64,000 bases of DNA from NCBI GenBank assembly GCA_963727505.1, contig CAVSGP010000004.1, positions 928,001-992,000 of the forward strand, in the 5' to 3' direction. Within the stretch, counting starts at the first letter, position 1; every line of letters begins with the position of its first letter. Shown piece after piece: positions 31,956 through 47,435 of the stretch. The translations under genes and the position numbers were made by a program. Under the pieces are notes generated by a model, which saw nothing but the letters and a program-made list of their open reading frames with translations, did no database searches and had not been told where the DNA came from. This stretch comes from an uncultured Trueperaceae bacterium. Lineage in GTDB: Bacteria; Deinococcota; Deinococci; Deinococcales; Trueperaceae.

Positions 31956-32375
31956 TCAGCCCACGTCTCGAAGAGCGTCGCGCCAGTCGTCGAGCGGCCG
32001 GTCGGGAAGCTCCCGGTAGTCCGCTTCCGGCGTGGCCGAGGAGAAGAAGCAGTAGAGCCTCAGCACCTCCGGCCCGGGGTTGACGGTGGCGTGGCGGGCG
32101 CCGGCGGGGACGATCCAGGCGTCCCCCTCTCCCACGCGCGTCCACCTGCCCTCCACCCACAGCGCGCCGCGCCCCCGCGCCACCACGATGACCTCCTCCA
32201 TCGTGTCGTGCACGTGCGGCACGCGGGGGCTGGCATCGTCCTGCGGCTCGACATCGACCGTGCGGAACGAACAGGAGGCGGCGGAACCGGTCCGGGCCGA
32301 GAACACCTCGCGCACCGAGCGGTTGGGGAGCCGGTACGCCTCCACCTCGTCGATGGTGCGCACGCTCGCCTTCAT
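31956..32375 (-). CDS. Cupin domain protein
   Basis: PHVHDTMEEVIVVARG and GDAWIVPAGARH metal-binding cupin motifs. Confidence 0.88.
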   Translation of the reverse strand: MKASVRTIDEVEAYRLPNRSVREVFSARTGSAASCSFRTVDVEPQDDASPRVPHVHDTMEEVIVVARGRGALWVEGRWTRVGEGDAWIVPAGARHATVNPGPEVLRLYCFFSSATPEADYRELPDRPLDDWRDALRDVG

Positions 32376-32454
32376 GCGTTCCTCGTCGCCATACGAGATC
32401 GCTGCCGCCGCGCATCCGCCGCCCGTCGCAGACCGGACGTCCGGCGCCGCCGGC

Positions 32455-33234
32455 TCATGCTGATCCGTCCGGCAGCTCGGCCATGGCGGCGCTCGCCTCG
32501 CGCACGTCGGCGGCGATGCGGTCGGCCACGCCCGCGACGACGCGGGCCGCCTTCTCCGCCGTCGCCTGTTCCGGCGCGCCGTACCAGCCTGTCGCAGCAA
32601 TCTGACGGACGTCGTGGAGCACCGGCCGCACGTTGGGGTTGCGGCGCACCGCGTCGATGCGCCGGCCGCGGCCGGGAGGCGAAGGGTTGGTGGCACGCTC
32701 CACGTGGACCAGGGCGGGGTCGAAGGCCAGCACCGGCAGGACCTCCAGCTCGCCGCCGTGGGTGAGCCCGCCGGTCTCGTCGCCGAAGAGGTCGCGCGCC
32801 ACGTAGCAGGCCTCGACCTTGAGGACCTCCATCCCCAGCTCGTGGTGGATGCGGCTGGCCGCGACGCCGATGGCGTCGCTGTTGCCCTCGTGCCAGTTGA
32901 GGATGACGACGCGCTCGGCGCCATGCTGGGCCACGCTGCCCGCGAGATCGAGCATGACCGCCACGAAGGTCTCGGGGCGGAGCGTCACCGTGCCGGCGAA
33001 CCCCATATGGAAGGGCGTGATGCCCATCGGCGCGAACGGGACCACCAGGGCCCCGAGCCGCTCGGCGACCGCCCGCGCGAACACCAGCGCCGCGATCCAG
33101 TCGGTCCCGCACGGCAGGTGAGGGCCGTGTTGCTCCACCGAGCCGGTCGGGATGATCACCGTCTTGCTGGCCTCCAGCAGCGCCTCGGCCTCGGGCTGCG
33201 TGATGTCCATCAGGTCGTTGGGGTGGGTCGTCAC
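32455..33234 (-). CDS. Creatininase-family amidohydrolase
   Basis: PTGSVEQHGPHLPCGTD, NWHEGN, HGGELE, A.AEKA; GTG start with AGGAGG RBS. Confidence 0.9.
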   Translation of the reverse strand: MTTHPNDLMDITQPEAEALLEASKTVIIPTGSVEQHGPHLPCGTDWIAALVFARAVAERLGALVVPFAPMGITPFHMGFAGTVTLRPETFVAVMLDLAGSVAQHGAERVVILNWHEGNSDAIGVAASRIHHELGMEVLKVEACYVARDLFGDETGGLTHGGELEVLPVLAFDPALVHVERATNPSPPGRGRRIDAVRRNPNVRPVLHDVRQIAATGWYGAPEQATAEKAARVVAGVADRIAADVREASAAMAELPDGSA

Positions 33235-33242
33235 GTTCCTCC

Positions 33243-33551
33243 TCAGCCTTCCGCCGAAGCGGTGTCCGCCGGGTCCACCCTGCCCAGCAGCGTCACCACG
33301 TCGGTGGTGTTGTGCAGGATCTCGTCGGGGAACACGATGGTGATGGCGTTCGTCGGGCACACGGACTCGCAGTGACCGCAGTACCAGCACTCGTCCGGGA
33401 ACGCCACCACCGGCAAGGTCTCCCGGTCGCCCTCCTCCTTGTAGATGATGTCGCCGGGGCACACCCAGTCGCACAGCGTGCACCGGATGCAGGTGTTGGG
33501 ATCGATCTGGATGGGATTGTGCGCGCTCGCCGCGCCGTCGCCATGTTCCAT
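33243..33551 (-). CDS. 2x[4Fe-4S] ferredoxin (AprB-like)
   Basis: CIRCTLCDWVCPGD and ECWYCGHCESVCP. Confidence 0.9.
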   Translation of the reverse strand: MEHGDGAASAHNPIQIDPNTCIRCTLCDWVCPGDIIYKEEGDRETLPVVAFPDECWYCGHCESVCPTNAITIVFPDEILHNTTDVVTLLGRVDPADTASAEG

Positions 33552-33558
33552 GCTCGTC

Positions 33559-35283
33559 CTAGCCTCCCTTTCCTGGTTGCCGTCGCGGGAACGCCGAGGC
33601 GAGCGGCATCTGCGCCGACAGCGTGGTCACGCTCGGTCCCTCGGCCGTGCGGTCGACCAACACGAAGGAACGCCAATGGGCGTTGTCGGTCTCGGGATAG
33701 TCGATGCGCCAGTGCGCCGATCCGGTCCGCGTTTCCTGGCGCTCCAGCGCCGCCTCGGCGAGCAGCTCCGCGTTCAGGCGGATGTTGCGCGCCTCGTGCA
33801 CACGCATCAGGCCGTGCGTGTGTGTCGCACCCAGCGCTGCCCCCTCGCGCCGCAACGCCCGCAAGGTGTCGAGCGCGTGGCGCAGTCCGCGCTCGGTGCG
33901 CCGTACGCCGGCGAAGTCGGTGACCGTGTGCCGGATGCGATCCTCGAAGGCCTGCCAGGAGGGACCGCCTGGCTGCCGGAGATGGACGGTCGCCTCGCCG
34001 ATCAGCCGTTCCAACTCGCCGGGGTCCACCTCGGGCAGCGTGCCCCCCTCCTTGACGTACTGCACGATGCCCTCCCCGGCGATGTGGCCCAGCGTCGCCG
34101 CTCCGGCGATACCGCCGCTGACCGTAGCGCTGTCGCCTGCCGAGAACAGGCCGCGGACGGACGACTCGGCGTTGGCGTCGACAGCGATGCCGCTGCCGCG
34201 GAAGTAGAGCCCGCTTCGGCGGATGCTGAGCTCGGAGATCGACACCTCGACGGGGTCGGTGCGGAAATCCACGCCCTTCTGCCGGTAGAACGCCGGCAGG
34301 GTGTGCCGGTCGATCTGCAATGTCTCCTCCATGTGGTCGAGAACGTCGGTGGGGAGGTGGCGGCAGTCGAGGTAGATGGGACCGTTACCCTCCAGATACT
34401 CCTTGATGACGCCGTCGGCAAGCACGGCCCGGCGCGCGTTCTCCCCCTTGGGATCGTAGCGGAACATGAAACGCTCGCCCTGGCGATTGAGGAAGTAGGC
34501 GCCCAGGCTGACGAGCGCGTTGAGCCCCTGGGTCGAGAAACCCTTGGGGGTCAGCGTCGTCTCCGTGAACTCCATGTTGGCCAGGGTGGCGCCGGCGCGG
34601 TAGCCCATCGCCTGGGCGTCCCCGGTGTTGTACGGGCAGTGCCAGCTATCGAAGGCGAGCCCCGAAGCGTTCATGGACAGGCGGTTGACGTCCCCCGTCG
34701 AAAGCACCACGGCGCGCGCCCGCACGTAGTACCAGGCGCCAGAACGGATATCGAAGGCCAGCACGCCGTAGGCGCGGCCGTCCTCCACCAGCACCTGGAC
34801 CCCCATGGTGCGAGCCAGCACGGTGGCCTTGCCCCGCCGCACGCGTTGACCGATGTGGTGCTTGAAGCGGGTGCCGTCGAAGTTGATGTGGTAGGCGCCG
34901 GGAAGCCCGAACGAGCGGTGGCGGTCGTAGGTCCCGGTACGCGGGTCCTTGAAGTCGACGCCCAGCGCCTCGAGCTTGCGCAGCACGCGCGGCATCTCGC
35001 GGACCACCCGGTCGGTGACTTCCATGTCGACGATGCCGTCGGTCAGGTCGGGGATGTGCTTGAGGAGGAACTCCGGGGTGTCCCATTCGGGCCCCGTCTC
35101 CATGATCGTCAGATAGTGGTCGACGCCGCCGCCGACCGAGCCGCTGCGTTCGAGCAGCTTGCCCTTGTCACAGATCACGACCTCCAGCCCGGCCTCCAGC
35201 GCCGGGATCGCTGCCATGCAGCCGGCGACCCCACCGCCGACCACGGCAACGTCGGTCTCGAGCCGGATCACGTCGTCGTTCAC
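33559..35283 (-). CDS. FAD-dependent oxidoreductase, AprA-like (SdhA/FrdA/AprA superfamily)
   Basis: VVGGGVAG, RSGSVGGGVDH, NTGDAQAMGYRAGA..ANMEF, GLFSAGD, RQETR..HWRIDYPETD. Confidence 0.85.
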   Translation of the reverse strand: MNDDVIRLETDVAVVGGGVAGCMAAIPALEAGLEVVICDKGKLLERSGSVGGGVDHYLTIMETGPEWDTPEFLLKHIPDLTDGIVDMEVTDRVVREMPRVLRKLEALGVDFKDPRTGTYDRHRSFGLPGAYHINFDGTRFKHHIGQRVRRGKATVLARTMGVQVLVEDGRAYGVLAFDIRSGAWYYVRARAVVLSTGDVNRLSMNASGLAFDSWHCPYNTGDAQAMGYRAGATLANMEFTETTLTPKGFSTQGLNALVSLGAYFLNRQGERFMFRYDPKGENARRAVLADGVIKEYLEGNGPIYLDCRHLPTDVLDHMEETLQIDRHTLPAFYRQKGVDFRTDPVEVSISELSIRRSGLYFRGSGIAVDANAESSVRGLFSAGDSATVSGGIAGAATLGHIAGEGIVQYVKEGGTLPEVDPGELERLIGEATVHLRQPGGPSWQAFEDRIRHTVTDFAGVRRTERGLRHALDTLRALRREGAALGATHTHGLMRVHEARNIRLNAELLAEAALERQETRTGSAHWRIDYPETDNAHWRSFVLVDRTAEGPSVTTLSAQMPLASAFPRRQPGKGG

Positions 35284-35311: not shown

Positions 35312-36433
35312 TCATCCGTCGTACCGCAGGATCTCGATGCCTGCACCCCCCCGATCACTGGTGAACGCCAGACCATCCGCCTGGACGAACACGTCGTTGG
35401 TCTGCGGGTGGACGTCCCCCTTCGACGGCGGGACATGGCTGGCCACCTCGACCGGGGCGCGGGGGTCGGAGCAGTCGTACGCTCGTAGCCCCCCACTGAA
35501 GTAGGTCACGAAGATCAGCGTTTCACTCGAGAACGCACCAGGGCGGTTCTCGTGCAGGTTGTGGGGCCCGAAGCGGGGTCCGTGCGTGCGCACGGGCCCC
35601 TCGGGCTCCGGGAACGTCGAGAGCTCCTTGGGGTGGCTCTCGTCCTGGATGTCGAAGACCCGAACGAGCCGAGGCGTGGCGTCGTGCTCGGGCGTGGCCT
35701 TGGCCTCGTCGGTCACCACCAGCAGCCCGCGGCCGGGTAGCGGCATGGTGGTGTGGGTGTGTCCCCCGTGCTCGGGCGCCCAGGCAGCCGAGCCGACCAC
35801 CGTAGGCCGGCTCGGGTCGTGGATGTCGAGGATGCGCAGGCCACCGTCCCACACACCTGCATAGGCGCGATCACCGTGGCGAATGGCATGGTGGAGCTTG
35901 GGGTTGATGGTGTCCGGCCAGGCAGGCACCTCGCCGCCGGCCTCCCATTGGCCTGGCATCCACCAGCGGCCGGTCTCGCGGGGGCGCGCCGGATCCGAGA
36001 CGTCCACGATCAGCAGCATGCGATCGCGGAAACCCGGGGCGACGGCCGATAGGTAGACGGTGGGCTCGAGCTCGTCACACCACATGCGGTGCACGCCCCG
36101 GCCGCCGGTGTCGTAGAACGACACCTGGCGCGGATGCGCGGGATCGCTCAGGTCGAAGATCCCGAAGCCGGTACGCTCGGCCCGTTCCCCGGCGCGCCAC
36201 TCGTAGTTGACGAAGAGCAGGTCTTGGACGATCTGCACTTTGGGTGACATGGTGTTGGCGTAGCCGGGTAGGAAGCCCGCGAGGACGGGTTCGCGCGGAT
36301 CGGACACGTCCAAGACCGCGGTCCCGACACCGGGTTCCATGTTGCCGACGTAGAGGTGCCGGCCGTGCGACATGAGCTGCATGGTGCTGCCCTTGCTGCC
36401 GAGATCATGATGACCGAGAAGTTCGAAGCCCAT
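35312..36433 (-). CDS. LVIVD-repeat beta-propeller protein
   Basis: Repeated VLDVSDP/IFDLSDP/IVDVSDP/ILDIHDP and His motifs (GVHRMW, HTHT, GPHNLHE). Confidence 0.85.
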   Translation of the reverse strand: MGFELLGHHDLGSKGSTMQLMSHGRHLYVGNMEPGVGTAVLDVSDPREPVLAGFLPGYANTMSPKVQIVQDLLFVNYEWRAGERAERTGFGIFDLSDPAHPRQVSFYDTGGRGVHRMWCDELEPTVYLSAVAPGFRDRMLLIVDVSDPARPRETGRWWMPGQWEAGGEVPAWPDTINPKLHHAIRHGDRAYAGVWDGGLRILDIHDPSRPTVVGSAAWAPEHGGHTHTTMPLPGRGLLVVTDEAKATPEHDATPRLVRVFDIQDESHPKELSTFPEPEGPVRTHGPRFGPHNLHENRPGAFSSETLIFVTYFSGGLRAYDCSDPRAPVEVASHVPPSKGDVHPQTNDVFVQADGLAFTSDRGGAGIEILRYDG

Positions 36434-36445: not shown

Positions 36446-37477
36446 CTACTGGATTTTGGCGACCGCCTGCTTGAGGATCGGCACGATGCTCTGACCGGCC
36501 GCGGCGATCTGTCCGACCTTCGGTTGCTCTTCCGCGCCCTGCATCGGCACGATGATGAGCCCCTGCTTCTTGGCGTCGGCCAGCAGGCCGGGATCGTGCA
36601 GCGCCGCCCAGACGGCCGAGCGCATGGCGCTCACAGCGGCATCGGGCATGCCGGGAGGGCCGAAGAAGCTGCGGTGCATGGTGATCATGTTGACGATCGC
36701 CTGAACGAGCTCCTTGCCCTGGCCCTGGGTGACCTCGAGGGCCGTAGGCACGTCGGGGTAGCCCGACTCGCGCGCGTCGCCGATGGTCAGGATCGGCCGC
36801 AGATCGCCAGCCTGGATGCCCGACAGCGAGGAGTGCCAGGCGGTGATGTGTCCGTCTCCCTCACCCTTGATGACGGCCAGGGTGGTGTCGGCGTTGCCCT
36901 GGTAGCCGGTGACGGCCTTGAGCTCGAAGTTCAAGGCGTAGGCCAGCACCGCCATGGTGTAGAAGTCCTCGTCGGTGCCCTGCGTCGGGAAGATGAAGGG
37001 GCGACCGAGGTTCTGGACGTCCTGCATGGTCTGGATCTTCGACTTACCGCCCACCACCAGCACGCGCGCCTCGGTGGCGGCGCGCCCCAGGTAGACGAAC
37101 TTGGTGGCGTCGAACTCGACGCCCTGGCTGCCGGAGAGCTGTGCCAGCACCAGGGCCGGCACGCTCGTGAAAGCGATCGTCATGCCGTCGGGCTTGGCGT
37201 GCCAGAGGTAGTTGGCACCCACCACGCCGCCCGCGCCCTGCATGTTCTTGACGCGCACGTCGGCCGCGCCGAGGTGCTTGGCGATGTAGGGGGCGATCAT
37301 GCGGGCGTACTGCGTCATCTGGCCGCTCGGGCTGTTGGGCAGGATCAGGGTGACCGTCTTGCCCTTGTAGTAGTCCGAGCCGCTCTGGGCCATCGCCATC
37401 CCGCCTACGAGCGCGAGCGCGGCGATCAGCCCTACCATGATGTTGAAGCGTGCCTTCCGTCCCACAGTTGCCTCCAT
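36446..37477 (-). CDS. tctC: Tripartite tricarboxylate transporter substrate-binding protein
   Basis: DYYKGKTVTLI, NMQGAGG..GAN...AKPDG.TI, YPDVPT. Confidence 0.85.
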   Translation of the reverse strand: MEATVGRKARFNIMVGLIAALALVGGMAMAQSGSDYYKGKTVTLILPNSPSGQMTQYARMIAPYIAKHLGAADVRVKNMQGAGGVVGANYLWHAKPDGMTIAFTSVPALVLAQLSGSQGVEFDATKFVYLGRAATEARVLVVGGKSKIQTMQDVQNLGRPFIFPTQGTDEDFYTMAVLAYALNFELKAVTGYQGNADTTLAVIKGEGDGHITAWHSSLSGIQAGDLRPILTIGDARESGYPDVPTALEVTQGQGKELVQAIVNMITMHRSFFGPPGMPDAAVSAMRSAVWAALHDPGLLADAKKQGLIIVPMQGAEEQPKVGQIAAAGQSIVPILKQAVAKIQ

Positions 37478-37543: not shown

Positions 37544-38077
37544 TCAGAGCGGTCCCGGCAAGATGCCGTGATACATCTGGGTGTTCAGCAGCACGACGAA
37601 GAGCAGGTACAACGCCCCGCTCACGCCGATGGAAAGGGCCAGCGCGCTGTACCAGCGCAAGCGCCCGATGGCGGCCGCGTCGCCGAGCACGAACAGGAAG
37701 ATGCCCACGATGGGGCCGAGAAGCAGCACCAGGCCAAGAAGCACCGCCAGCAACACGAACGCGATGACCTCGCGGCGCGCGTGCGTGCCGGGCGGGTGGA
37801 CCGTGGCGGCTTTCGTGCGTGACGCCCGCGCCTTGTCCTGCACACCCTCGCGCGCGCTTCGCCGCGTCAGCACCTCCAGGACATCGACATGCAGGTCGTC
37901 CGGCGAGCCGGTGTTCTGCACCACCAGCTGAGCGATCACCAACACCAGCGAGAACACCGCAACCGGCACGGGCACCAAACGCGAGCGTGGTCCGTAGCCC
38001 ATGCTGATGATGATCACGGCGACCAAGATGCCGACCAGCACCACGCCGAGGATGTTCTCCTGGGCACGGCGGCTCAT
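37544..38077 (-). CDS. tctB: TTT small membrane subunit
   Basis: Hydrophobic 177-aa protein between tctA and tctC. Confidence 0.8.
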   Translation of the reverse strand: MSRRAQENILGVVLVGILVAVIIISMGYGPRSRLVPVPVAVFSLVLVIAQLVVQNTGSPDDLHVDVLEVLTRRSAREGVQDKARASRTKAATVHPPGTHARREVIAFVLLAVLLGLVLLLGPIVGIFLFVLGDAAAIGRLRWYSALALSIGVSGALYLLFVVLLNTQMYHGILPGPL

Positions 38078-39591: not shown

Positions 39592-40653
39592 CTAGCCCAG
39601 CAGCTCGGCAACGTCGACGATCCTGCCTTCGCGGCTCGAGCGCACCGCTGCCAGCATCACCGCGACGTTGCGGGTCGCGACCTCGGCATCGACCTCGGCC
39701 GCAACCTCGCCGCGCACCGCCCGGGCGAACTCCTCGACCTCTTCGCGCAGGTGATCGACGCCAGGGATCTCAACCTCGGCGTCACGGAGCTCGAAGTCGT
39801 CGGGGTCGTCGGTTGCTCGCGCGAAGGCGCGCTTGGTGAGGCTCGAGTGCGCGTCGGTCACGTCCGAGTTGCTCCACCAGCTGAAATCGAGCTGGTAGAA
39901 CAGGTCGGCCGTGGTCCCGTAGACGTTGATGGTGAAGACGCCGGGACAGGCCCAGTTCGTCCCCAGGTAGGCCATGGGGCCGCTCTCGAACTCGAGCACC
40001 GTGACGTTCACCGTGTCGTTCTCGACGCGCGTGTACATGGGCTTCCCGAAGGTGGCGACGCGCTTCACGGGGCCGAGCAGGTACTGCAGGTTGTCGATCT
40101 GGTGGATGCCCAGTTGCGTCAACGGGCCCCCCGGGGCCTTCTCGGGATCGCCGCGCCAGTTCCCGGGCGTGATCTGCAGGCCGCGTTCGTTGGCGAACAC
40201 CGCCTCGATGACCGAGACCTCGCCGATCTCGCCCGACGCCATCATCGCCTTGATCTTGCGCAGTCCTCCGAGGCGCCGCGCCGAGTGCCCGCAGGTGAAC
40301 ACCACGCCAGAGTCGGCCACCGCACGCTCGATGCGGCGCGCGTCGGCCAGCGTGACGGCGATGGGCTTCTCCACGAAGGCGTGTTTGCCCGCCGCCGCCG
40401 CCTGCTCGATGACGACAGCGTGCTGGTCGTTGGGCACCGTCACGATGACGCCATCGACGTCGTCACGCGCCAGTAGGGCCTCGAGGCTGGTGTCCTGCCC
40501 GCAGCCGTAGCGCTCTGCGAAGGCGTCGCGCTTGCCCGGGGAGCGGCTGAAGCAGCTGACCAGCTCGACCTCGCTGCTGCGGGTGTAGGCGTCTGCCAGC
40601 ACGTTGGCCCAGCGCCCCAGCCCCACCGCGGCCACACGCACGGGCCGGCTCAT
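39592..40653 (-). CDS. Gfo/Idh/MocA-family oxidoreductase
   Basis: VGLGRWA, H......AAAAGKHAFVEKP, GGPLTQLGIHQID. Confidence 0.92.
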   Translation of the reverse strand: MSRPVRVAAVGLGRWANVLADAYTRSSEVELVSCFSRSPGKRDAFAERYGCGQDTSLEALLARDDVDGVIVTVPNDQHAVVIEQAAAAGKHAFVEKPIAVTLADARRIERAVADSGVVFTCGHSARRLGGLRKIKAMMASGEIGEVSVIEAVFANERGLQITPGNWRGDPEKAPGGPLTQLGIHQIDNLQYLLGPVKRVATFGKPMYTRVENDTVNVTVLEFESGPMAYLGTNWACPGVFTINVYGTTADLFYQLDFSWWSNSDVTDAHSSLTKRAFARATDDPDDFELRDAEVEIPGVDHLREEVEEFARAVRGEVAAEVDAEVATRNVAVMLAAVRSSREGRIVDVAELLG

Positions 40654-40693: not shown

Positions 40694-41848
40694 TCACGCG
40701 CTCCGGTACAGCTTGGTGAGCACGAACTCGCGGTGCCCGAGCGCCTCGGCGCAGCTGCGGCGACCGCGGACGGTACGCTCCACCACCGTCATGAGCTGCT
40801 CGCCCGCGCCTGCCACGTCGATCTCGCGCCGGAGGAGCCCACTGACGTCGAGGTCGATGTGCTCGCTCATGGTCCCGGCGGTGATGGGGTTGCCCGTCAG
40901 CTTGACCACCGGCTCGATGGGGTGGCCCACGATGTTGCCCTGCCCGGTCGGGAACAGGTGGATCACGGCGCCGGCGGCGGCCATGAGGGTGATGCACTCG
41001 GCGGCCGCCGAGGAGGTGTCCATGAAGTTCAGACCCTTCTTGCTCGGCGCCACGGCCGGCCCCAGCACGTCGACCACCGGCTTGGTGCCGGTCTTCTCGA
41101 TGTTGCCGAGCGCCTTCTCCTCGATGGTGCTGAGGCCCCCACGGATGTTGCCCTGGGTGGGCTGCGAGCCCATCAGGTCGGCGTCCTGCTCCTCGATCAT
41201 GCGGATGTAATCGTCGTAGGTCTCCTGGAAGCGCCGGCGCACATCGTCGTCGATGCAGCGTTCGGCGATGAGATGCTCGCCACCGGTGAGCTCGGAGGTC
41301 TCGCCGAAGAGCACGGTGCCGCCCGCCTCGATGACCTTGTCGACGACTTGCGCCACCGTGGGGCACGACGCCAGACCGGTGGTGGTATCGCTCTCGCCGC
41401 ACTTGATGCTGAGCGTGATCTCGCCCAGTTCGATCGGCACACGGGGGATCTCACCGGCCTCCTGGACGAAGCGCTGCGCGGCGCGCGCCGCGACCTTGAT
41501 GGTCTCGAGGTCACCGTGGCGTTCGATGGAGAAGCCGTGCACCGGGGTGCCCTGCGCACGGATCCCCTCGACGACGAGCTCGGTCCAGTTGGGCTCGATG
41601 CCGATCACGATGGCCGCGGCCACGTTGGGGTTGGAGCCGGTGCCGATCAGGGTCCGGAAGTGGAGTTCCAGATCCTCTCCGAACTGCAGCCGGCCGTAGG
41701 GGTGCGGGATGGCCAGCGCTTCGGGAACGAGCCGCGCTACCCCCTCGGCGGCGGCGTTGGAGATGTCGTCGACAGGGATGACGACCACGTGGTTGCGGAT
41801 GCCGACGCGGCCGTTGGCCCGCCTATAGCCGGTGAGTTCCGATGCCAT
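40694..41848 (-). CDS. suyB: (2R)-sulfolactate sulfo-lyase beta subunit (UxaA family)
   Basis: GYRRANGRVGIRNHV, PVDDISNAA, PHPYGRLQFGEDLELHFRTLIGTGSNPNVAA, KCGESDTTTG, QPTQGNIRGGLSTIEEKALGN, MDTSSAAAE: SuyB-type signatures. Confidence 0.88.
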   Translation of the reverse strand: MASELTGYRRANGRVGIRNHVVVIPVDDISNAAAEGVARLVPEALAIPHPYGRLQFGEDLELHFRTLIGTGSNPNVAAAIVIGIEPNWTELVVEGIRAQGTPVHGFSIERHGDLETIKVAARAAQRFVQEAGEIPRVPIELGEITLSIKCGESDTTTGLASCPTVAQVVDKVIEAGGTVLFGETSELTGGEHLIAERCIDDDVRRRFQETYDDYIRMIEEQDADLMGSQPTQGNIRGGLSTIEEKALGNIEKTGTKPVVDVLGPAVAPSKKGLNFMDTSSAAAECITLMAAAGAVIHLFPTGQGNIVGHPIEPVVKLTGNPITAGTMSEHIDLDVSGLLRREIDVAGAGEQLMTVVERTVRGRRSCAEALGHREFVLTKLYRSA

Positions 41849-41861: not shown

Positions 41862-42140
41862 CTACCAGCGCGCCGAACGGATGTTGTGGGTGTGGACGTA
41901 GTCGCCGACCTCGATGTCGCTCGTGGCGATGCCGACGCGCGTACCGTACTCGGTGACCTCGTCGCCGCGCTTCAACGCGCGAACGGCGATCTTGTGGCTG
42001 AGCGGAACCGCGCCGCGCGCGGTGATACGAGCCTCGCCGCCGGTATCCATGAAGATGCCGACGATCGCGTCACCGACGTCGATGTCTTCGGTTGCGACCC
42101 CGACATCGTCGCCTTCGTTATGGACCAGGAACTTGTGTAT
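41862..42140 (-). CDS. suyA: Sulfolactate sulfo-lyase alpha subunit (SAF domain); probable ATA start
   Basis: HKFLVHNEGDDVGVA, VPLSHKIA, EYG..VG.A..DI..GDYVHTHNIRSARW; directly upstream of suyB. Confidence 0.85.
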   Translation of the reverse strand: MHKFLVHNEGDDVGVATEDIDVGDAIVGIFMDTGGEARITARGAVPLSHKIAVRALKRGDEVTEYGTRVGIATSDIEVGDYVHTHNIRSARW

Positions 42141-42225
42141 GGCGAACCACCTCCCCTGCGGGCGCCCGGAGGCCCCACATGGTCCGGGCGCCCTTGGCGC
42201 CCGGTCGCTTGGTTGCGATGGCGCC

Positions 42226-42266
42226 ATTCTAGGGGGCAGCCAGCAACGATGTCAATTTTCAATTTT
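42226..42266 (-). promoter_or_regulatory. Sigma70 promoter TTGACA-N18-TAGAAT with overlapping AAAATTGAAAATTGACA motif
   Basis: -35 at 42255-42250 and -10 at 42231-42226 on the minus strand; AT-rich island in GC-rich DNA. Confidence 0.8.
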
Positions 42267-42364: not shown

Positions 42365-42428
42365 GCGTCACTGCAGTCGCGTCACTGCAGTCGCGTCACT
42401 GCGGCCGCGTCACTGCGGCCGCGTCACT
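42365..42428. repeat. 14-bp tandem repeat x4.5 at the stop codon of the small ORF
   Basis: GCGTCACTGCAGTC x2, GCGTCACTGCGGCC x2, partial copy. Confidence 0.9.
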
Positions 42429-42645
42429 CCAGCAAGGCCGCGTCGGACGCCGGCGTGACGCCGGCCAGGTCCCGCCCACACCACGGGCAGTAGCGGACAT
42501 TCACGCGTTGCTGGCGGGCGCGCCCGCCGGGCGGAACGGTGGTCAGCACCCACGACCGACTGCGTGAGCTGTAGAAGACGATGCCTTCGATCTGTCCGGT
42601 CTCGGGCCGGCAGAGGTGGTTCGAGGGGTGTGTTTCCTCACGCAT
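42424..42645 (-). CDS. Small putative zinc-binding protein (73 aa)
   Basis: HLC...YCPWCG motif; ATG 3 nt after the dehydrogenase stop, with GGGAG/GAGG upstream. Confidence 0.6.
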   Translation of the reverse strand: MREETHPSNHLCRPETGQIEGIVFYSSRSRSWVLTTVPPGGRARQQRVNVRYCPWCGRDLAGVTPASDAALLE

Positions 42646-42648: not shown

Positions 42649-43638
42649 TCAACTCCCGACCGCGCTGCGAACCGGGTTGAGCGGGGCTTCGCCGCGCAGG
42701 CAACGCGCGACCTCCTCGGCGGCGAGCCGGCGCATGCGCGCCTGCGCCTGCTCCGAGTACCAGGCCATGTGGGGCGTCAGCAGCACGGACGGATGGCTGC
42801 GTAGCGGGTCGTCGGCCGACGGCGGCTCCCCCTCGGCCACGTCCAGTCCGGCGCCCGCCAACCGGCCCTCGTCGAGGGCGCGCAGCAGCGCGGGCTCGTC
42901 GATGAGGCCACCGCGGCTGACGTTGACGACGAACGCCCCGTCGGGCAGGAGCGCCAGCTCGCGCTCGCCCAGCAGGTGTCGCGTGGAGTCGCTGAGCGGC
43001 AGGTGAAGGCTGACCACCTGCGCATCACGAAGTACGTCCTCCAGCGACGAGCGCAACTCGAGCGCGCCACCGGTGGGGTCGGAGGTCACGAACGGGTCGA
43101 AGCCGGTGAGCCGGAAGCCCAAGCCCTTCAGGAACTCCGCCGCGCGCCGGCCGATTCGTCCGAGGCCGAGCACGGCCACGGTGGTCGCCTCGGGCGCGGC
43201 GATGGGCCGCACCTCGGCCACCCCCCAGCCACCCGCCCGGACGTGTCCGGCCGCCGTCATGATCTTGCGGGTCAGCGACAGGATCAACGTCACGGCGTGG
43301 AGCGCCACCTCGTCGGTGCAGTAGTCCAGTACGTTGCATACCTGCACGCCGACCTCTGCGGCCGCATCCACGTCGATGCGGTCCACGCCGATGCCGTAGC
43401 GCACCAGCGCCTCCACACCACGCATCTCGGCCAGGACCGCGCGCGTGAAGCGTGGCGCCGACCCGGCAAGGACGGCGGCAGCGCCACGGCAACTGTCGAC
43501 AAGCGCCGCCCCTTCGTCGCCCTGGGCCCGCACGACCTCTACGCCAAGCGGGGCCAGCACGGCCTCCTCGATATCGAGCGGATCGAAGCGCGCGCCACAC
43601 ACGACGACGCGCCGCGGGCCCGCGGCGGCGCCCGTCAT
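42649..43638 (-). CDS. D-isomer-specific 2-hydroxyacid dehydrogenase (CtBP/SerA-like)
   Basis: RYGIGVD, DYCTDEVALH, GLGRIG, SLHLPL, NVSRGGLIDE, GAGLDV..EP, TPHMAWYS. Confidence 0.93.
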   Translation of the reverse strand: MTGAAAGPRRVVVCGARFDPLDIEEAVLAPLGVEVVRAQGDEGAALVDSCRGAAAVLAGSAPRFTRAVLAEMRGVEALVRYGIGVDRIDVDAAAEVGVQVCNVLDYCTDEVALHAVTLILSLTRKIMTAAGHVRAGGWGVAEVRPIAAPEATTVAVLGLGRIGRRAAEFLKGLGFRLTGFDPFVTSDPTGGALELRSSLEDVLRDAQVVSLHLPLSDSTRHLLGERELALLPDGAFVVNVSRGGLIDEPALLRALDEGRLAGAGLDVAEGEPPSADDPLRSHPSVLLTPHMAWYSEQAQARMRRLAAEEVARCLRGEAPLNPVRSAVGS

Positions 43639-43708
43639 CGCTCGCTCGCGTTCGAACACGCCACGCGACGCGGCGAACGGGGACGGTGCTGCCTGAGGTG
43701 CGGCGTGT

Positions 43709-44428
43709 TCACGAGGATACCTCCGCCTTGCCATGGGTCACAGGAAGCTCGAGCTCGGAGCCGAGGTGCGTCAGAAGGGCAGCGCCGGCATTGCGCACGT
43801 GCTCCCGCATGGAGGCCTCCGCCGACCTCGCTTCACCCCGCGCTACGTGTTCCAGGATGCGGTCGTGCTCCGCCATCGAGGAGGGCAGGCGCCCTTCGAC
43901 CTCTGCGGAGGTGCCGATCAGCAGGCGGACCTGCCCCATCAACATCTCGGACATCCTCAGCAGCCGGTCGTTGCCCGACGCCTCCCACACCGTGCGGTGG
44001 AAGGCGACGTCGAGGTCGGCGTAGCGCGCCAGGTCGCGGTCGTCGCAGCACTCGACCTGCTCTTCGTGCAACGAGCGCAGCGAGCTCGCCAGGGCCTTGG
44101 GGTCCGTCTCAACGGCAAGCCGCATCGCGAGCCCTTCCAGGACCTCCCGCAGGGTGTAGATGTCGACGATGTCCGGGGGCTCGAGGGTGATGACGGAGTA
44201 GCCGCGATGCGGCCTGGACTCCACCAGGCCCTCGCGCTCCAGCGCCGCCAGCGCCTGATTGATCGGCGTCGGCGAGAGCTCCAGTTGCTCGACCAGGTCC
44301 CGCATGACCAGCTTGCTCCCGGCCGGCAGGGTCCGTGTCAGGATCCCCTCCCGCAACGCGTCGTAGGCCTGGCGGGACAGGACATCCCGTTCTGGAGCGT
44401 GCAGTTTGCCGATCGTCGGCTTCCCCAT
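43709..44428 (-). CDS. GntR/FadR-family transcriptional regulator
   Basis: wHTH (AYDALREGI..LSPTPINQAL..LEREGLV) plus FCD domain (DVAFH, EHDRIL..H). Confidence 0.93.
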   Translation of the reverse strand: MGKPTIGKLHAPERDVLSRQAYDALREGILTRTLPAGSKLVMRDLVEQLELSPTPINQALAALEREGLVESRPHRGYSVITLEPPDIVDIYTLREVLEGLAMRLAVETDPKALASSLRSLHEEQVECCDDRDLARYADLDVAFHRTVWEASGNDRLLRMSEMLMGQVRLLIGTSAEVEGRLPSSMAEHDRILEHVARGEARSAEASMREHVRNAGAALLTHLGSELELPVTHGKAEVSS

Positions 44429-44435
44429 GCTCAGG

Positions 44436-44487
44436 AGTCTATAACAAAAAATTGAAAATTGACAATTGACCCCTCACGACCTAGAAT
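44436..44487. promoter_or_regulatory. Divergent promoters: TTGACA-N17-TAGAAT (plus) and TAGACT -10 for leaderless gntR (minus), with shared 17-bp motif
   Basis: TTGACA 44459-64, TAGAAT 44482-87; AAAATTGAAAATTGACA 44448-64; TAGACT at 44441-44436 lies 7 nt before the gntR ATG. Confidence 0.82.
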
Positions 44488-44642
44488 TGCCGAATCGACA
44501 ATCTCGTTGCCTAGCACGCGCACGTGCGCCGCCACCGTTGCGGACGTGGGTGCCGATGCGCCGGGAGGTGGCTCATCCACGGGTTCCTCGTTCTTACCAG
44601 CTTCGCACGCAACAGGGGTCACGCCCGGGCATGCGTTCGACC

Positions 44643-45428
44643 ATGACGGTCTCCACTCAGCCGCGGCAGGCGAAGGCCACCGCCACCAACATCTCGAAGT
44701 GGTACGGCGACCTCGAGGTGCTGCACAACGTCAGTCTCGAGATCCACCAGCACGAGTTCCTGTGCCTGCTCGGACCGAGCGGCTGCGGGAAGACGACCCT
44801 GCTGAGGATCCTCGACGGGCTCATCCGCCCCGACGAAGGCAACGTGCGCCTCGACGACGAGATCATCACCGGGCCGCCCCGACAGGCGGCCGTGGTGTTC
44901 CAGCAGTTCGGGCTCTTCCCCTGGAAGACCGTCAGTCAGAACGTGGCCTTCCCGCTGGTCCTCGCCAACGTCCCCAAGGCGCAGATCGAGGAGAAGGTGC
45001 AATGGGCGGTCGACCTCGTCGGGTTGAAGGGCTTCGAGGCCTCCTTCCCCGACAATCTCTCCGGCGGGATGCGGCAGCGCGTCGGCATCGCACGGGCCCT
45101 CGCCCTCGGACCCGAGCTCCTGCTCATGGACGAGCCGTTCGCCTCGGTCGACGCCTACACCCGGGAGCTGCTCCAGGGCGAGCTGCTGTCGATCTGGGAG
45201 CGCTTCCGCCAGACGGTGGTCTTCGTGACCCACAGCATCGACGAGGCCATCACGCTGGCCGATCGCATCGTGGTCATGAAGACCAAGCCGGGTGAGGTCT
45301 ATCACGTGTTCGACGTGCCGATCGAACGTCCGCGCACCGTCGACACGGTCCGCAAGCACCCCGCCTACGAGCCGCTGCGCGAGACCATCTGGCAGGACAT
45401 GCTCAAGGGCAGCGGAAGGGAAGTGTGA
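44643..45428 (+). CDS. ABC ATP-binding protein (TauB/SsuB/NitT type)
   Basis: GPSGCGKT, VFQQFGLFPW, LSGGMRQRV, LLMDEPF, VTHSIDEA. Confidence 0.93.
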   Translation: MTVSTQPRQAKATATNISKWYGDLEVLHNVSLEIHQHEFLCLLGPSGCGKTTLLRILDGLIRPDEGNVRLDDEIITGPPRQAAVVFQQFGLFPWKTVSQNVAFPLVLANVPKAQIEEKVQWAVDLVGLKGFEASFPDNLSGGMRQRVGIARALALGPELLLMDEPFASVDAYTRELLQGELLSIWERFRQTVVFVTHSIDEAITLADRIVVMKTKPGEVYHVFDVPIERPRTVDTVRKHPAYEPLRETIWQDMLKGSGREV

Positions 45429-46270
45429 TGGACGTGCAGGAGCGCCATCCCGACGCACGAGGCGCGCTGCGCGAACGGGTCCAGCAGCGCAGGCGGCAGG
45501 CCGTGCGCCGCAGCCGGAACCGCTTCTTGCTCATCCGGGTGTTGTCGTTCGTGGTGGTGCTGGGCGCCTGGCAGATCTACGGCGCCAACACCCTGGAGAT
45601 CATCTTCACGCCGTTCACCACGGTCATCGCTCACCTCTTCGAGCTGCTCGTCTCGGGGCCGCTGGCCGGCGCCATCCTCTACAGCGTGTCGATGTTCCTG
45701 GGCGGGCTGGTGATCGGCAGCCTCATCGGGATCACCCTCGGCGTCGCCATGGGCCGCTTCGCGGTGTTCGAAGCCGCGGTAGGGATGTACGTCTACGCCA
45801 TCTACTCCACACCGCTGGTCGCCCTGATCCCGCTCATCTCGCTGTGGTTCGGCTTCGGCGTGCAGGCGCAGCTCATCATCATCTCCATGTTCGTCCTCTT
45901 CCCCGTCACGATTGCCGTGTACAACGGTGTGCGTAGCGTGGATGCCTCGCTGATCGAGGTCGCGCGTTCGTTCCGCGCCAACGAGATGGCGATGTGGCGC
46001 CACGTCATCATCCCGAGCGTCGTGCCCTACATCGTCACGGGGCTCAGCCAGGGCGTGGCCATGGGTCTGGTGGGGATGTTCATCTCCGAGATCTACACGG
46101 CGCTGTCGGGCATGGGGCAGATCCTCGCCTTCTCGGCAAACGCCTACAAGACGGCGGACATGCTGGCGGTCCTGCTCACCGTGATGATCCTGGGGGTCTT
46201 CTTCCGGACGGTCATCGAGGAGCTCAGGAAGCGCCTCGCGCCGTGGTTCAGCAAGGACTCCGGCCGGTGA
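45425..46270 (+). CDS. ABC permease (TauC/SsuC type)
   Basis: PLVALIPL..WFGFG, LIEVARSF.A, IIPSVVPYIVTG. Confidence 0.92.
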   Translation: MMDVQERHPDARGALRERVQQRRRQAVRRSRNRFLLIRVLSFVVVLGAWQIYGANTLEIIFTPFTTVIAHLFELLVSGPLAGAILYSVSMFLGGLVIGSLIGITLGVAMGRFAVFEAAVGMYVYAIYSTPLVALIPLISLWFGFGVQAQLIIISMFVLFPVTIAVYNGVRSVDASLIEVARSFRANEMAMWRHVIIPSVVPYIVTGLSQGVAMGLVGMFISEIYTALSGMGQILAFSANAYKTADMLAVLLTVMILGVFFRTVIEELRKRLAPWFSKDSGR

Positions 46271-46355
46271 GCGCCGCTCCCGCCGAGGGTAGAAGTGCAT
46301 CGGTGTTCCCGGGACGGAATGCGTCCGTTCCCGAGCACGTCAAGGGAGGCAGCAG

Positions 46356-47435
46356 ATGAGCAGGTCCAACGAAGGATGGTTCAAGAGCAAGCCGCTGGGC
46401 GCATGGGTCGCGGCCGGGTTCGTGGTCGTGGCCCTGCTGGCCGGGTCCGCGAGCGCGCAGTCCTCGAACGACTGGGCGAACGTGACCGACGCGACCCCCT
46501 GGGGAACGATCGGAGCGACGGTGGCGGTGTCGCCACCCAAGGCCGTCTTCCTCGTGCCCTTCATCGCACAGGCCGAAGGGTTCTTCGACAAGGAGCACCT
46601 GCACGTCAAGCTGGTCCCCGAGACCAGCGGCGTCCCGGCCTTCCTGAGCACCGTTTCCGGCTCCACCAAGTTCTCCTTCACCTCCGCCACGGACCCCATC
46701 ATCGCCGCCTCCCACGGCAAGGCCGCCCACGTCATCTGGTCGTATGGCCTCAAGCTCGACACCGTATGCATCGGCGGTGACGGCGTCAAGTCCGCCAAGG
46801 ACCTGGTGGGCAAGAACGTGGGGGTCACCGACACCGGCGGCTTCGCCCAGACCCTGCTCCAGGCCTGCCTCGACCCCGCGGGCGTGTCGCTCGACAGCGT
46901 CCACATGATCCATATGCAGCGCTCCGGCTTCGTTCCCGCCATGGTCAGCCACCGCATCTCGGCCGCCGTCTTCCACGCCGACGGCGCCTACGTCGTCCTG
47001 CAGAAGGACCCCGGCGTGACCACGCTCGCCTACGAGTACAAGGCCATCCCCGACTGGTGGTACGGCGCGCTGGCGGCCAACGACGCCTACGCCGACAGCC
47101 ACCCCGCCGAAGTGAAGCGGTTCCTGCGCGCCCTGGTGCTCGCCAGCCGCTGGATGTACGACCCGGCCAACAAGGCCAAGGTCATCGCCGACGGGGCCAA
47201 GGCCAGCGGCGAGGATCCCGCCGCCATCGAGTACGCCTACAACTTGATGATCGACGGCAAGATCTGGCCGCTGAACGAGGGCCTGCCCACCCAGAAGTCG
47301 TTCCAGTACACCGCGCAGAAGCTCAAGGACTTCGGCGAGATCGATACCATCCCCACCTACAGCCACACCATCGACGCCTCCTTCGTCGACGCCGTGCTGC
47401 AGAACATCGGGAAGGTCGATCCCTCGAAGTACTAG
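46356..47435 (+). CDS. ABC substrate-binding protein (SsuA/THI5/NMT1-like)
   Basis: Signal peptide, IAQAEGFFDKEHL.V, DLVGKNVGV, P..VKRFLRAL. Confidence 0.88.
   Translation: MSRSNEGWFKSKPLGAWVAAGFVVVALLAGSASAQSSNDWANVTDATPWGTIGATVAVSPPKAVFLVPFIAQAEGFFDKEHLHVKLVPETSGVPAFLSTVSGSTKFSFTSATDPIIAASHGKAAHVIWSYGLKLDTVCIGGDGVKSAKDLVGKNVGVTDTGGFAQTLLQACLDPAGVSLDSVHMIHMQRSGFVPAMVSHRISAAVFHADGAYVVLQKDPGVTTLAYEYKAIPDWWYGALAANDAYADSHPAEVKRFLRALVLASRWMYDPANKAKVIADGAKASGEDPAAIEYAYNLMIDGKIWPLNEGLPTQKSFQYTAQKLKDFGEIDTIPTYSHTIDASFVDAVLQNIGKVDPSKY

Follow-up and report, generated by a model that had tools for sequence, protein, structure and literature searches.

Within the organosulfur cycle, sulfolactate serves as a hub into which sulfoquinovose, 2,3-dihydroxypropane-1-sulfonate (DHPS) and cysteate drain, and from which the known routes lead to SuyAB by way of SlcC/ComC. 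This study examined a putative catabolic island built around suyAB, the genes of (R)-sulfolactate sulfo-lyase, in an uncultured Trueperaceae bacterium. The DNA analyzed, referred to below as the window, is a stretch of 64,000 nucleotides (assembly GCA_963727505.1, contig CAVSGP010000004.1, positions 928,001 to 992,000), of which the island occupies positions 31,956 to 47,435. Next to suyAB we identified a four-gene cassette, encoding a Gfo/Idh/MocA oxidoreductase (Gfo), a creatininase-family hydrolase, a small cupin and a D-isomer-specific 2-hydroxyacid dehydrogenase (2-HADH) of a separate clade. At SuyAB loci, this cassette replaces the gene of the dehydrogenase ComC.

The closest described system is the SlcC/ComC-SuyAB sulfolactate 'biomineralization' module with the importer SlcHFG, which the accessible parts of the sources describe for Chromohalobacter salexigens, Roseovarius nubinhibens and Paracoccus species (PMC12421959, PMC5812351). 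The island resembles this module in its orthologous two-subunit SuyAB, in its adjacent GntR-type regulator and D-type 2-HADH, and in the presence of operon genes for a tripartite tricarboxylate transporter (TTT), among which tctB follows tctA, as described for slcHFG. It differs in that ComC (family Ldh_2) is found neither in the island nor in the genome, the 2-HADH comes from another clade and the island lacks a SuyZ or TauE exporter. The island further encodes four to eight extra enzymes (Gfo, creatininase-type hydrolase, cupin, LVIVD protein and a flavoprotein-ferredoxin pair), a second importer, of the ABC type, and a TctC that is no more than 25-26% identical to the TctC proteins of other SuyB loci. 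The hpsRNOUP-suyAB cluster for DHPS in Cupriavidus pinatubonensis (locus L081), where upstream dehydrogenases deliver sulfolactate, shares SuyAB with the island (SuyB 59.4% identical) and, like it, has a TctC gene adjoining that of SuyB. In contrast, the island encodes no homologues of HpsN, HpsO or HpsP, its regulator and transporters are of other types, and its upstream enzymes belong to unrelated families. The myo-inositol route of Thermotoga maritima uses a Gfo-type dehydrogenase together with the creatininase-family C-C hydrolase IolN, and this family can hydrolyze a diketone, not amides alone. The island likewise combines a dehydrogenase of the Gfo/Idh/MocA type with a hydrolase of the creatininase family, but this hydrolase scores only 52.5 bits with the IolN model NF041098 (cut-off 245), and the island has a cupin and a 2-HADH in place of IolM, IolO and a sugar-type transporter. 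With regard to the flavoprotein-ferredoxin pair, the closest systems are AprAB and the PAPS (3'-phosphoadenosine 5'-phosphosulfate) reductase of Methanothermococcus thermolithotrophicus (8a8o; accessible part of PMC10322725), which, like it, combine an FAD-binding alpha subunit with a small beta subunit carrying two [4Fe-4S] clusters. The pair of the island differs in reaching only 180.8 bits against this enzyme, in falling below the NCBIfam cut-offs, and in lying in a transporter-rich catabolic operon, with no ATP sulfurylase, APS (adenosine 5'-phosphosulfate) kinase partner or sulfite reductase in its context.

The gene run listed by a first-pass annotation of the window was recovered in full, in the same order and on the implied strands, from open reading frames (ORFs), Pfam and NCBIfam. 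In this window of approximately 70% G+C, genes were called by means of third-position GC and domains were assigned with Pfam and NCBIfam. The genes of the island are as follows:

43709-44428, minus strand: GntR/FCD-family regulator (Pfam FCD 89.4 bits, GntR 56.2 bits)
42649-43734, minus strand: D-isomer-specific 2-hydroxyacid dehydrogenase, 2-HADH (Pfam 2-Hacid_dh_C 176 bits)
42424-42645, minus strand: 73-aa ORF with a CPWC motif (no Pfam match; third-position GC 0.84)
41862-42227, minus strand: SuyA, small SAF-domain subunit, maximal ORF (Pfam SAF 23.4 bits)
40694-41848, minus strand: SuyB, GD_AH catalytic subunit (GD_AH_C 270.7 bits, GD_AH_second 112.8 bits)
39592-40653, minus strand: Gfo/Idh/MocA NAD(P) oxidoreductase (Pfam)
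38074-39576, minus strand: TctA (Pfam 437.7 bits)
37544-38077, minus strand: TctB (Pfam 36.1 bits)
36446-37477, minus strand: TctC (Pfam 67.8 bits)
35312-36433, minus strand: LVIVD-repeat beta-propeller without signal peptide (Pfam LVIVD 62.7 bits)
33559-35283, minus strand: FAD flavoprotein (FAD_binding_2 129.7 bits, Succ_DH_flav_C 52.6 bits)
33243-33551, minus strand: ferredoxin with two [4Fe-4S] clusters, 102 aa (Fer4; 7 bases from the flavoprotein gene)
32455-33210, minus strand: creatininase-family metal hydrolase (Pfam Creatininase PF02633, 202.3 bits)
31956-32375, minus strand: small single-domain metal cupin, 139 aa (Cupin_2 58.4 bits)
44466-45428, plus strand, likely start 44631: ABC ATPase (Pfam ABC_tran)
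45425-46270, plus strand: ABC permease (Pfam BPD_transp_1)
46356-47435, plus strand: NMT1/SsuA-type binding protein (Pfam NMT1)

From suyA to the creatininase gene, no intergenic gap exceeds 40 bases, save the 66 bases between tctB and tctC; suyA and suyB are 13 bases apart, suyB and the Gfo gene 40 bases, and tctA overlaps tctB. The creatininase gene is followed by the cupin gene after 79 bases. Close relatives vary in this part of the unit: the Gfo gene is followed directly by the creatininase gene, or the LVIVD gene lies between them, or the full TctABC-LVIVD-flavoprotein-ferredoxin block does. The 73-aa ORF had been labeled a small zinc protein, a label that is not supported, as the product contains three cysteines and has no Pfam match, and copies (67-83% identical) were found in close relatives only (L006, L083 and L092).

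The UxaA-type pair had been taken for SuyAB, and this assignment was borne out by orthology, by membership of a plasmid clade with 57-71% identity and by the position of the protein in the SuyB tree. Split UxaA-family enzymes are not all SuyAB, since a heteromeric L-fuconate dehydratase has been inferred among them from gene context (PMC6336799, accessible part), and NCBIfam holds no SuyB model, the sole match being to galactarate dehydratase (139 bits, cut-off 730.85); orthology was therefore tested. The pair has the SuyAB architecture, with separate SAF and GD_AH proteins encoded by adjacent genes. SuyB is 59.4% identical to the SuyB encoded in the arrangement hpsN-hpsO-MFS-dehydrogenase-SAF-SuyB on a Cupriavidus pinatubonensis plasmid (H6/L081) and 59.1% identical to that of GntR-SAF-SuyB-'putative sulfate exporter' on plasmid pTAV3 of Paracoccus versutus (H11/L082), both alignments covering 98-99% of the length. 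A search of 72,556 plasmids gave 461 matching records, of which the best 60 were examined; among the matches listed, the 13 best were 57-71% identical to SuyB and the next was 41.2% identical. A scan of one genome per species yielded 548 stretches encoding SuyB relatives, from which 80 with 60-96% identity, from many phyla, were kept. Together with two plasmid loci and the window, they make up 83 SuyB loci, whose ORFs were clustered and the representatives named with Pfam; these loci are interrelated and hence not independent, and the counts given below ignore kinship.

The SuyB clade as a whole spans 57-96% identity and includes hpsN-linked and suyR/exporter-linked loci, and in a tree of 82 clade sequences the SuyB of the window and of both reference loci sit among canonical SuyB. 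SuyA-type tblastn matches (30-92%) adjoin SuyB in most loci. A neighborhood survey of the clade, which the first-pass annotation had suggested, recovered the classical sulfolactate neighbors in the 83 loci: the commonest were 2-HADH, Ldh_2 (41), GntR (39), the Cons_hypoth698 exporter (20) and aldehyde dehydrogenase (19), and the others included GH31, sets resembling the sulfo-Entner-Doudoroff (sulfo-ED) pathway (SDR, SGL lactonase, IlvD/EDD, DHDPS) and sets resembling the sulfo-Embden-Meyerhof-Parnas (sulfo-EMP) pathway (isomerase-like, PfkB, DeoC/LacD). As these neighborhoods correspond to the published SlcC/ComC-SuyAB sulfolactate scheme (PMC12421959, accessible part), the pair was read as SuyAB. 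Short of an assay, the comparison establishes the SAF and GD_AH proteins as a predicted genuine (2R)-sulfolactate sulfo-lyase (EC 4.4.1.24). The accessible part of one source states that SuyAB have lost four cysteines conserved in other UxaA/GarD enzymes (PMC6336799). In a HMMER alignment with GarD (6u7l), in which the four named residues are unmapped, two GarD cysteines face cysteine and two face isoleucine or alanine. Beside SuyAB, the window contains no Ldh_2, Cons_hypoth698 exporter, aldehyde dehydrogenase or sulfo-ED/EMP set, only a 2-HADH of another clade.

The cassette was found beside SuyAB in the window and in 12 of the 82 further loci, and again in two genomes from separate samples described below (G163 and G472), with shuffled gene orders. 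The Gfo cluster is present in 13/83 SuyB loci and the creatininase cluster in 12/83, always with Gfo; the thirteenth locus (L005) is a contig of 2.4 kb. According to the record titles, the cassette loci belong to Acidobacteriota, Actinomycetota, Gemmatimonadota, Xanthobacteraceae and Trueperaceae, and beyond close relatives the tblastn identities are 36-58% for Gfo, 42-53% for the creatininase-type protein, 33-42% for the cupin and 33-42% for the 2-HADH. The cupin gene follows the creatininase gene in most of these loci, and LVIVD, GntR and an ABC importer are frequent companions. LVIVD accompanies the cassette in the window, L001, L038, L042, L053, L065, L083, L089, L090, L091, G163, G412, G497, G643 and G472. 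Cassette loci occupy dispersed positions on the SuyB tree (8 changes), often as sisters of loci with Ldh_2, an exporter or a sulfo-ED set, so the SuyB proteins are ordinary and the cassette is the movable part. When the creatininase-type protein was compared with metagenomes, 13 loci were obtained, 10 of them relatives with 84-96% identity, and a plasmid search with Gfo gave one record.

The best solved relative of Gfo is an uncharacterized structural-genomics entry (PDB 3db2, 518 bits), and the enzyme is a candidate second dehydrogenase occupying the place that ComC has elsewhere. The creatininase-type protein falls below the NCBIfam cut-offs for MftE (97.9 against 172 bits), creatininase (91.8 against 235) and IolN (52.5 against 245), and in the ESM Atlas it matched generic creatininase clusters only. 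The cupin has weak solved relatives in DddK and KdgF. The 2-HADH, whose nearest solved relatives are phosphoglycerate dehydrogenase and CtBP, is a candidate oxidoreductase for sulfolactate/sulfopyruvate or another 2-oxo acid. The only solved relative of the LVIVD protein is a haloalkylphosphorus hydrolase (30.6 bits), and the protein is a candidate metal hydrolase of the esterase or lactonase type.

The replacement of ComC is apparent from the distribution of Ldh_2, which occurs in 1/13 cassette loci and 40/70 others (Fisher p = 0.0016, a generous value as the loci are related). Among the 50 loci with at least 5 kb on both flanks, the figures are 1/10 and 23/40 (p = 0.011, generous for the same reason). 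No PF02615 (Ldh_2) match was found in the window or in its source genome (G000; 3.26 Mb, 97.4% complete), as had been noted for the window, nor did an Ldh_2 protein from L051 give a tblastn match; Ldh_2 was likewise not found in the G003 and G005 genomes. Likewise, HpsN and sulfo-ED/EMP genes, reported as missing, were not detected in the window with Pfam. The reported absence of SlcC holds in part only: the adjacent 2-HADH belongs to the SlcC superfamily, but it has a clade of its own, as a branch with an SH-aLRT of 92 separates the 11 cassette copies from 35 SlcC-like ones. A LarA-family gene, of the nickel-pincer racemase type, is located 0-4.3 kb from SuyB in 5/83 loci (L009, L015, L016, L022 and L055), none of which carries the cassette.

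The suy and ABC operons are further linked by their promoters. A consensus scan of 19.7 kb revealed three promoter-like sites, against a shuffle mean of 1.1; they are listed here with a nearby repeat array:

42226-42266, minus strand: predicted suyA promoter, TTGACA-18-TAGAAT, 11/12 matches, with AAAATTGAAAATTGACA over the -35 box
44448-44487, plus strand: predicted ABC-operon promoter, TTGACA-17-TAGAAT, 11/12 matches, with AAAATTGAAAATTGACA over the -35 box and a third, degenerate 7-mer
44465 to 44436, minus strand: promoter-like site of the GntR gene, weak -35/-10 match, ending 8 bases before the ATG
42365-42433, no strand assigned: 14-nt tandem array of 4.9 copies (Tandem Repeats Finder, 92% matches, score 103)

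The 17-nt element AAAATTGAAAATTGACA has exactly two copies in the window, where none is expected. The ABC promoter also bears a third repeat overlapping the element; apart from this, the 16-nt core, with up to two mismatches, was found nowhere else in the 3.26-Mb genome. In L006 and L092 the element has been retained before both operons, and in L083 and L090 before suyA. Co-regulation of the two operons, the lack of which the first-pass annotation had named as grounds for refuting its reading, is thus supported, at the level of predicted promoters, by an element common to both and seen nowhere else in the genome. The GntR gene itself looks leaderless from the position of its promoter-like site. 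The 14-nt array overlaps the end of the 73-aa ORF, approximately 100 bases upstream of the suyA promoter, and is possibly an operator. The annotated ATG of suyA, its sole canonical start, lies within the predicted -10 hexamer. Because of this overlap, the true start is probably non-canonical and 27-33 codons further in, where GGGAGG followed by ATA and CTG codons occurs approximately 27-33 codons downstream; this start would give a protein of approximately 90 aa, as encoded by reference SuyA genes.

The two uptake systems recognized by the first-pass annotation were both recovered with Pfam and NCBIfam, as a TTT and an NMT1-type ABC importer. TctA, TctB and TctC occur together, all above their Pfam cut-offs. 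The TTT genes are missing in some close relatives and occur with the cassette in G163 (66/33/52%), and the TctC of the window has no orthologue among the TctC genes of other SuyB loci (best 25-26%). By analogy with SlcHFG, the precedent for a TTT sulfolactate importer (PMC5812351, accessible part), the TTT is a candidate for the uptake of sulfolactate or a related acid. As for the ABC binding protein, orthologues (39-79%) were found in cassette loci only. This protein does not belong to the SsuA or TauA subfamily, as it scores 79 bits with SsuA_fam TIGR01728 (cut-off 163.5) and 31.4 with TauA (cut-off 304.25), and only NMT1 is matched above cut-off; its best solved relative is the pyrimidine-binding ThiY, at 31 bits. 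The name SaoA/SaoP denotes an unrelated selenoprotein-linked ABC system.

The label 'AprA-like' given to the flavoprotein is apt, as its best solved relative is the alpha subunit of the APS-reductase-like PAPS reductase (8a8o_A, 180.8 bits), ahead of SdhA (100) and AprA (96). The AprAB-type architecture is present, with an alpha subunit of the fumarate reductase family binding FAD and a ferredoxin-like beta subunit with two [4Fe-4S] clusters. Nevertheless, the flavoprotein falls below all NCBIfam cut-offs, including those of TIGR02061 aprA (99.4 against 641.75) and PRK06854 (213.1 against 557), and its best model is PRK08275 (335.1 against 587). According to the accessible part of the source, the PAPS reductase, which has the same alpha/beta make-up as the pair of the window, could not be run in reverse (PMC10322725). 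With respect to sulfur, searches of the source genome for ATP sulfurylase (PF01747), PAPS_reduct (PF01507) and NIR_SIR (PF01077) were negative, and CysH/CysD were not found in it; judging from this gene content, the host seems unable to assimilate sulfate or sulfite. Elsewhere, the genome encodes two Oxidored_molyb proteins and has six TauE matches, which could dispose of sulfite. Since the cut-offs are missed, the genes of APS partners were not found, and one of two copies in G472 lies directly behind an ABC importer, the pair is most likely a dehydrogenase acting on an imported substrate rather than an enzyme oxidizing sulfite to APS.

A different flavoprotein, SdhA-like and 25-29% identical to that of the window, lies beside SuyAB in ten further loci (L007, L014, L018, L020, L021, L031, L041, L071, L073 and L074), with a class-I-fumarase-like subunit (Fumerase_C) in 6/10 and an NMT1-type ABC importer in 5/10. 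This neighborhood would fit a conversion of 3-sulfopropanoate to sulfoacrylate and then to sulfolactate.

The TctABC, LVIVD and flavoprotein-ferredoxin genes inserted in the operon are not a random acquisition, as they accompany the cassette again in two further phyla. Of 401 genomes sampled from the phylum around a Bacillota metagenome-assembled genome (G001), one matched, namely G163. Its contig (L100, G163:C48) carries a Cons_hypoth698 exporter, a SAF+GD_AH pair (35% to SuyB), Ldh_2, an IS110 transposase and GntR; a second SAF+GD_AH pair (31% to SuyB), Gfo (61%), flavoprotein (40%) and ferredoxin (53%); TctA (66%), TctB (33%), TctC (52%), an aldehyde:ferredoxin oxidoreductase, a major facilitator superfamily transporter and LVIVD (53%); and GntR, creatininase-type protein (53%), cupin (45%) and 2-HADH (38%). 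The two SAF+GD_AH pairs of this contig are located at 5382-6981 and 11500-12971, and the first, which is flanked by the exporter and Ldh_2, may be an anaerobe-type SuyAB outside the clade of 57% identity and above. In G472, from the phylum of G002, the flavoprotein (approximately 58-59%) and ferredoxin (64%) adjoin 2-HADH-creatininase-Gfo, a fumarylacetoacetate-hydrolase-family (FAH) gene, LVIVD, SuyAB (63%) and an ABC importer. The flavoprotein-ferredoxin pair thus clusters with a SAF+GD_AH pair in three phyla, represented by the window, G163 and G472. At E <= 1e-80, the flavoprotein was found in 1/401 genomes of the G002 phylum (G472), in two copies, one beside SuyAB and the cassette and the other directly behind an NMT1-type ABC importer, with RidA, Rieske oxygenase and M24 genes.

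We give an even chance to the reading that, on this genomic evidence, the island is one co-regulated catabolic unit around SuyAB, in which the cassette and the importers would feed the sulfo-lyase. A small anionic substrate would enter through the NMT1-type ABC importer of the cassette, and sulfolactate or a close acid through the TTT, as with SlcHFG elsewhere. The creatininase-type hydrolase, the cupin and the LVIVD protein may release or rearrange a C3 unit from the precursor imported by the ABC system, and the AprAB-like pair would oxidize an imported substrate without making APS. D-type 2-hydroxyacid dehydrogenases are expected, on stereochemical grounds, to take (S)-sulfolactate; the 2-HADH would accordingly convert (S)-sulfolactate to sulfopyruvate, which the Gfo enzyme would reduce to the (R)-form. 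SuyAB would split (R)-sulfolactate into pyruvate, which is the gain, and sulfite. As neither sulfite reductase nor CysH/CysD nor ATP sulfurylase was detected, this sulfite would have to be oxidized, by the two molybdenum oxidoreductases, or exported by TauE-family proteins, and not assimilated.

Several observations weigh against this reading. In a sample of 401 genomes from the phylum of G002, the cassette, anchored on the creatininase-type protein at E <= 1e-40, was found in 7/401 and SuyB (E <= 1e-100) in 12/401. Both occur in three genomes (G002, G472 and G644, the last flagged as unpublished and represented by table rows alone), with the genes within 10 kb in each. SuyB is thus present in 3/7 cassette genomes and in 9/394 others (p = 7e-4); the association persists without the center genome G002 (p = 0.0097) and loses significance without G002 and G644 (p = 0.12). 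In the remaining four cassette genomes (G412, G497, G514 and G643), no SuyB match reaches E <= 1e-30. Three of them keep 2-HADH, creatininase, cupin and Gfo, as does G643 with the exception of a 2-HADH match, and LVIVD is present in all three SuyB-less loci long enough to show neighbors (G412, G497 and G643). One or more of these three also carry an NMT1-type or other ABC importer, FAH, Amidohydro_2, a CrtI-like flavoprotein, FrsA-like esterases, an F420-type luciferase-like monooxygenase family (LLM) enzyme or a threonine-synthase-like enzyme. No desulfonating enzyme was found among the neighbors of the SuyAB-less cassettes, and no neighboring pyridoxal phosphate (PLP), LLM or thiamine pyrophosphate (TPP) enzyme scores as CuyA, SsuD or Xsc. 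Three candidates were rejected individually: the PLP enzyme of G412 as CuyA-like, being threonine-synthase-like (531 bits); the LLM enzyme of G643 as a desulfonating enzyme, being F420-type; and the TPP enzyme of G472 as Xsc, being acetolactate-synthase-like, with Xsc outside its 25 best models. A plasmid of Haloarcula ordinaria has a Gfo gene (61%) between two cupin genes, next to an ABC importer; 32 kb away, a creatininase homologue (47%) adjoins an M24 peptidase. This plasmid does not appear in the list of 60 SuyB matches, in which haloarchaeal plasmids reach at most 39%. Given the SuyB-less cassettes and the Gfo-cupin pair of Haloarcula, the cassette need not make sulfolactate. Other routes of racemization are also possible, as Ldh_2 is encoded elsewhere in the genomes of G002, G004 and G472 and the source genome of the window has a weak LarA-like match, and a role in racemization accounts for only two of the four cassette enzymes.

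The cassette is therefore not a dedicated sulfonate pathway; it is a general module, enriched with SuyB but not obligatorily linked to it, and the SuyAB-less cassettes presumably act on a non-sulfonated analogue. The undescribed upper pathway envisaged by the first-pass annotation stands as a recurrent SuyAB-linked unit across phyla and falls as a unit bound to sulfonates, since 4/7 cassette genomes are without SuyB at E <= 1e-30; the delivery of sulfolactate from a sulfonate is therefore one reading among several. More broadly, its recognition of SuyAB, of two importers and of linked enzymes was supported, and its dedication of the cassette to sulfonates was not.

These SuyB-less cassettes, together with the Haloarcula plasmid, provide grounds for a possible, though less probable, alternative, in which two modules lie side by side: SuyAB and the TTT for sulfolactate, and the cassette and the ABC importer for an unrelated non-sulfonated compound. 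Lactones, cyclic amides and hydroxy/keto acids, with an acylpyruvate-type cleavage as the final reaction, would be examples of such a compound, and the two modules would be linked by pyruvate as an end product or by a common GntR. A TTT importer for sulfolactate has precedent, and the companions of the cassette are generic catabolic proteins (Amidohydro_2, esterases, M24 and FAH). The companion FAH has its best match in 2,4-didehydro-3-deoxy-L-rhamnonate hydrolase (214.6 bits, below cut-off), and an FAH gene also adjoins the unit of the window (28.0-28.9 kb, plus strand) and that of relatives. Against this, neither chance nor a common end product explains well why SuyAB and cassette are adjacent, in shuffled orders, in the window, the 12 further loci, G163 and G472; in the window, a single operon with small gaps holds the cassette genes interspersed with suyAB; one promoter element is common to both operons and seen nowhere else in the genome; and ComC is missing from the cassette loci, with the single exception given above.

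A further alternative, which we regard as unlikely, concerns the flavoprotein-ferredoxin pair, which would be an APS-reductase-type enzyme acting in reverse, oxidizing the sulfite from SuyAB for detoxification and energy, and would thus be the part of the island that deals with sulfur instead of a dehydrogenase for the substrate. It would account for the match to PAPS reductase alpha with its two-subunit make-up, for the clustering of the pair with SAF+GD_AH in three phyla, for the finding of the flavoprotein in 1/401 genomes, one that has SuyAB and a copy beside it, and for the lack of a SuyZ-type exporter in the window. However, without PF01747 or PAPS_reduct in the source genome, APS would be a dead end; the aprA scores are far under the cut-offs; the second G472 copy, behind an ABC importer with RidA, Rieske and M24, fits an imported substrate; the G163 pair adjoins an aldehyde:ferredoxin oxidoreductase; and the characterized PAPS reductase could not be driven in reverse, according to the accessible part of its description (PMC10322725).

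Rather improbable, in our estimation, is a more far-reaching version of the reading centered on SuyAB, in which the cassette, the importer, LVIVD and the AprAB-like pair would form a new route that opens and oxidizes an N-containing or cyclic C3 sulfonate to sulfopyruvate and (R)-sulfolactate, an APS-reductase-type flavoenzyme having been recruited for a carbon-bound sulfonate. Cysteate, cysteinolate and amino-hydroxypropanesulfonate derivatives would be examples of such substrates, and the SuyAB-less cassettes would perform the same chemistry on carboxylate or phosphonate analogues.

The weakest alternative, that the SAF and GD_AH proteins form a sugar-acid dehydratase of a non-phosphorylative sugar-acid pathway without desulfonation, is highly improbable and was rejected on SuyB-clade orthology and the tree: although Gfo, the lactonase-like proteins, FAH and 2-HADH are reminiscent of oxidative sugar-acid routes, a heteromeric L-fuconate dehydratase is inferred among split UxaA enzymes (accessible part of PMC6336799) and the sole NCBIfam match is galactarate dehydratase, the protein lies inside the SuyB clade (57-96%), with a gap to at most 41% for other UxaA-family proteins, the cassette-linked SuyB are nearest to SuyB with Ldh_2, exporters or sulfo-ED sets, and the SuyAB-less cassettes lack any UxaA-family gene, so that a dehydratase is not part of the cassette chemistry.

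Beyond position 31956, the transcription unit probably continues into two further, lineage-specific genes, as these are syntenic in relatives with contigs long enough:

30550-31761, minus strand: beta-propeller with YVTN repeats and a twin-arginine (TAT) signal (Pfam/NCBIfam)
29607-30536, minus strand: URO-D/MtaA-like protein (Pfam/NCBIfam)

The TAT propeller is syntenic in L001, L083, L084, L086 and L088-L092 and the URO-D-like gene in L083, L089, L091 and L092; neither is present in the G163 cluster. An FAH-family gene (approximately 28000-28924, plus strand) is convergent with the end of the unit and syntenic in L083, L086, L091 and L092 (67-90%). FAH genes also lie beside the cassette in L038, L053, L068, G472, G497 and the Haloarcula plasmid. 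At 21046-26240, a MGH1-like (GH63-type) glycoside hydrolase and an ABC sugar importer are encoded, which are unrelated to the island and may possibly serve a solute of the glycosyl-glycerate type. Approximately 19-27 kb to the right of the window (G000:C4:1011253-1018947, minus strand; L111), a cluster encodes two ABC permeases, a PfkB kinase, a DeoC/LacD aldolase, a Gfo/Idh/MocA protein and a 467-aa isomerase-like protein, the last 25.6% identical to that of freshwater-actinobacterial SuyAB operons. This cluster may be a sulfosugar route feeding SuyAB, the similarity being weak. An SlcC-like 2-HADH is encoded at G000:C4:1003613-1004734.

With regard to the host, the closest SuyB relatives are Trueperaceae or Deinococcales according to their source records, and the organism is salt-loving and related to Deinococcus. 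A Deinococcota host would fit the operon at 2094-10316 for a V/A-type ATPase (subunits C/AC39, I, F, A, B and D), after which a universal stress protein is encoded.

In the literature searched, which lacked supplements and most subscription journals, we found no description of the cassette, of its link to SuyAB or of the recruitment of an APS-reductase-like pair. SuyAB, uptake by a TTT and the problem of racemization were already known; the cassette, its link and this recruitment are, within that literature, new. The SuyAB-less cassettes caution against annotating such neighborhoods as sulfonate pathways from gene context alone, and the shared promoter element provides a direct handle for induction tests. 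As the assimilation of sulfate and sulfite is apparently impossible in this organism, the pathway would serve carbon and energy rather than sulfur supply. For the SuyAB family, the island represents a third arrangement beyond the known routes, in which ComC is replaced by four cassette enzymes and a dedicated importer in 13/83 loci from several phyla, joined in three phyla by an APS-reductase-like enzyme. If the cassette feeds SuyAB, it would constitute either a new route for the delivery of (R)-sulfolactate or the breakdown route of a sulfonate for which no catabolism has been described.

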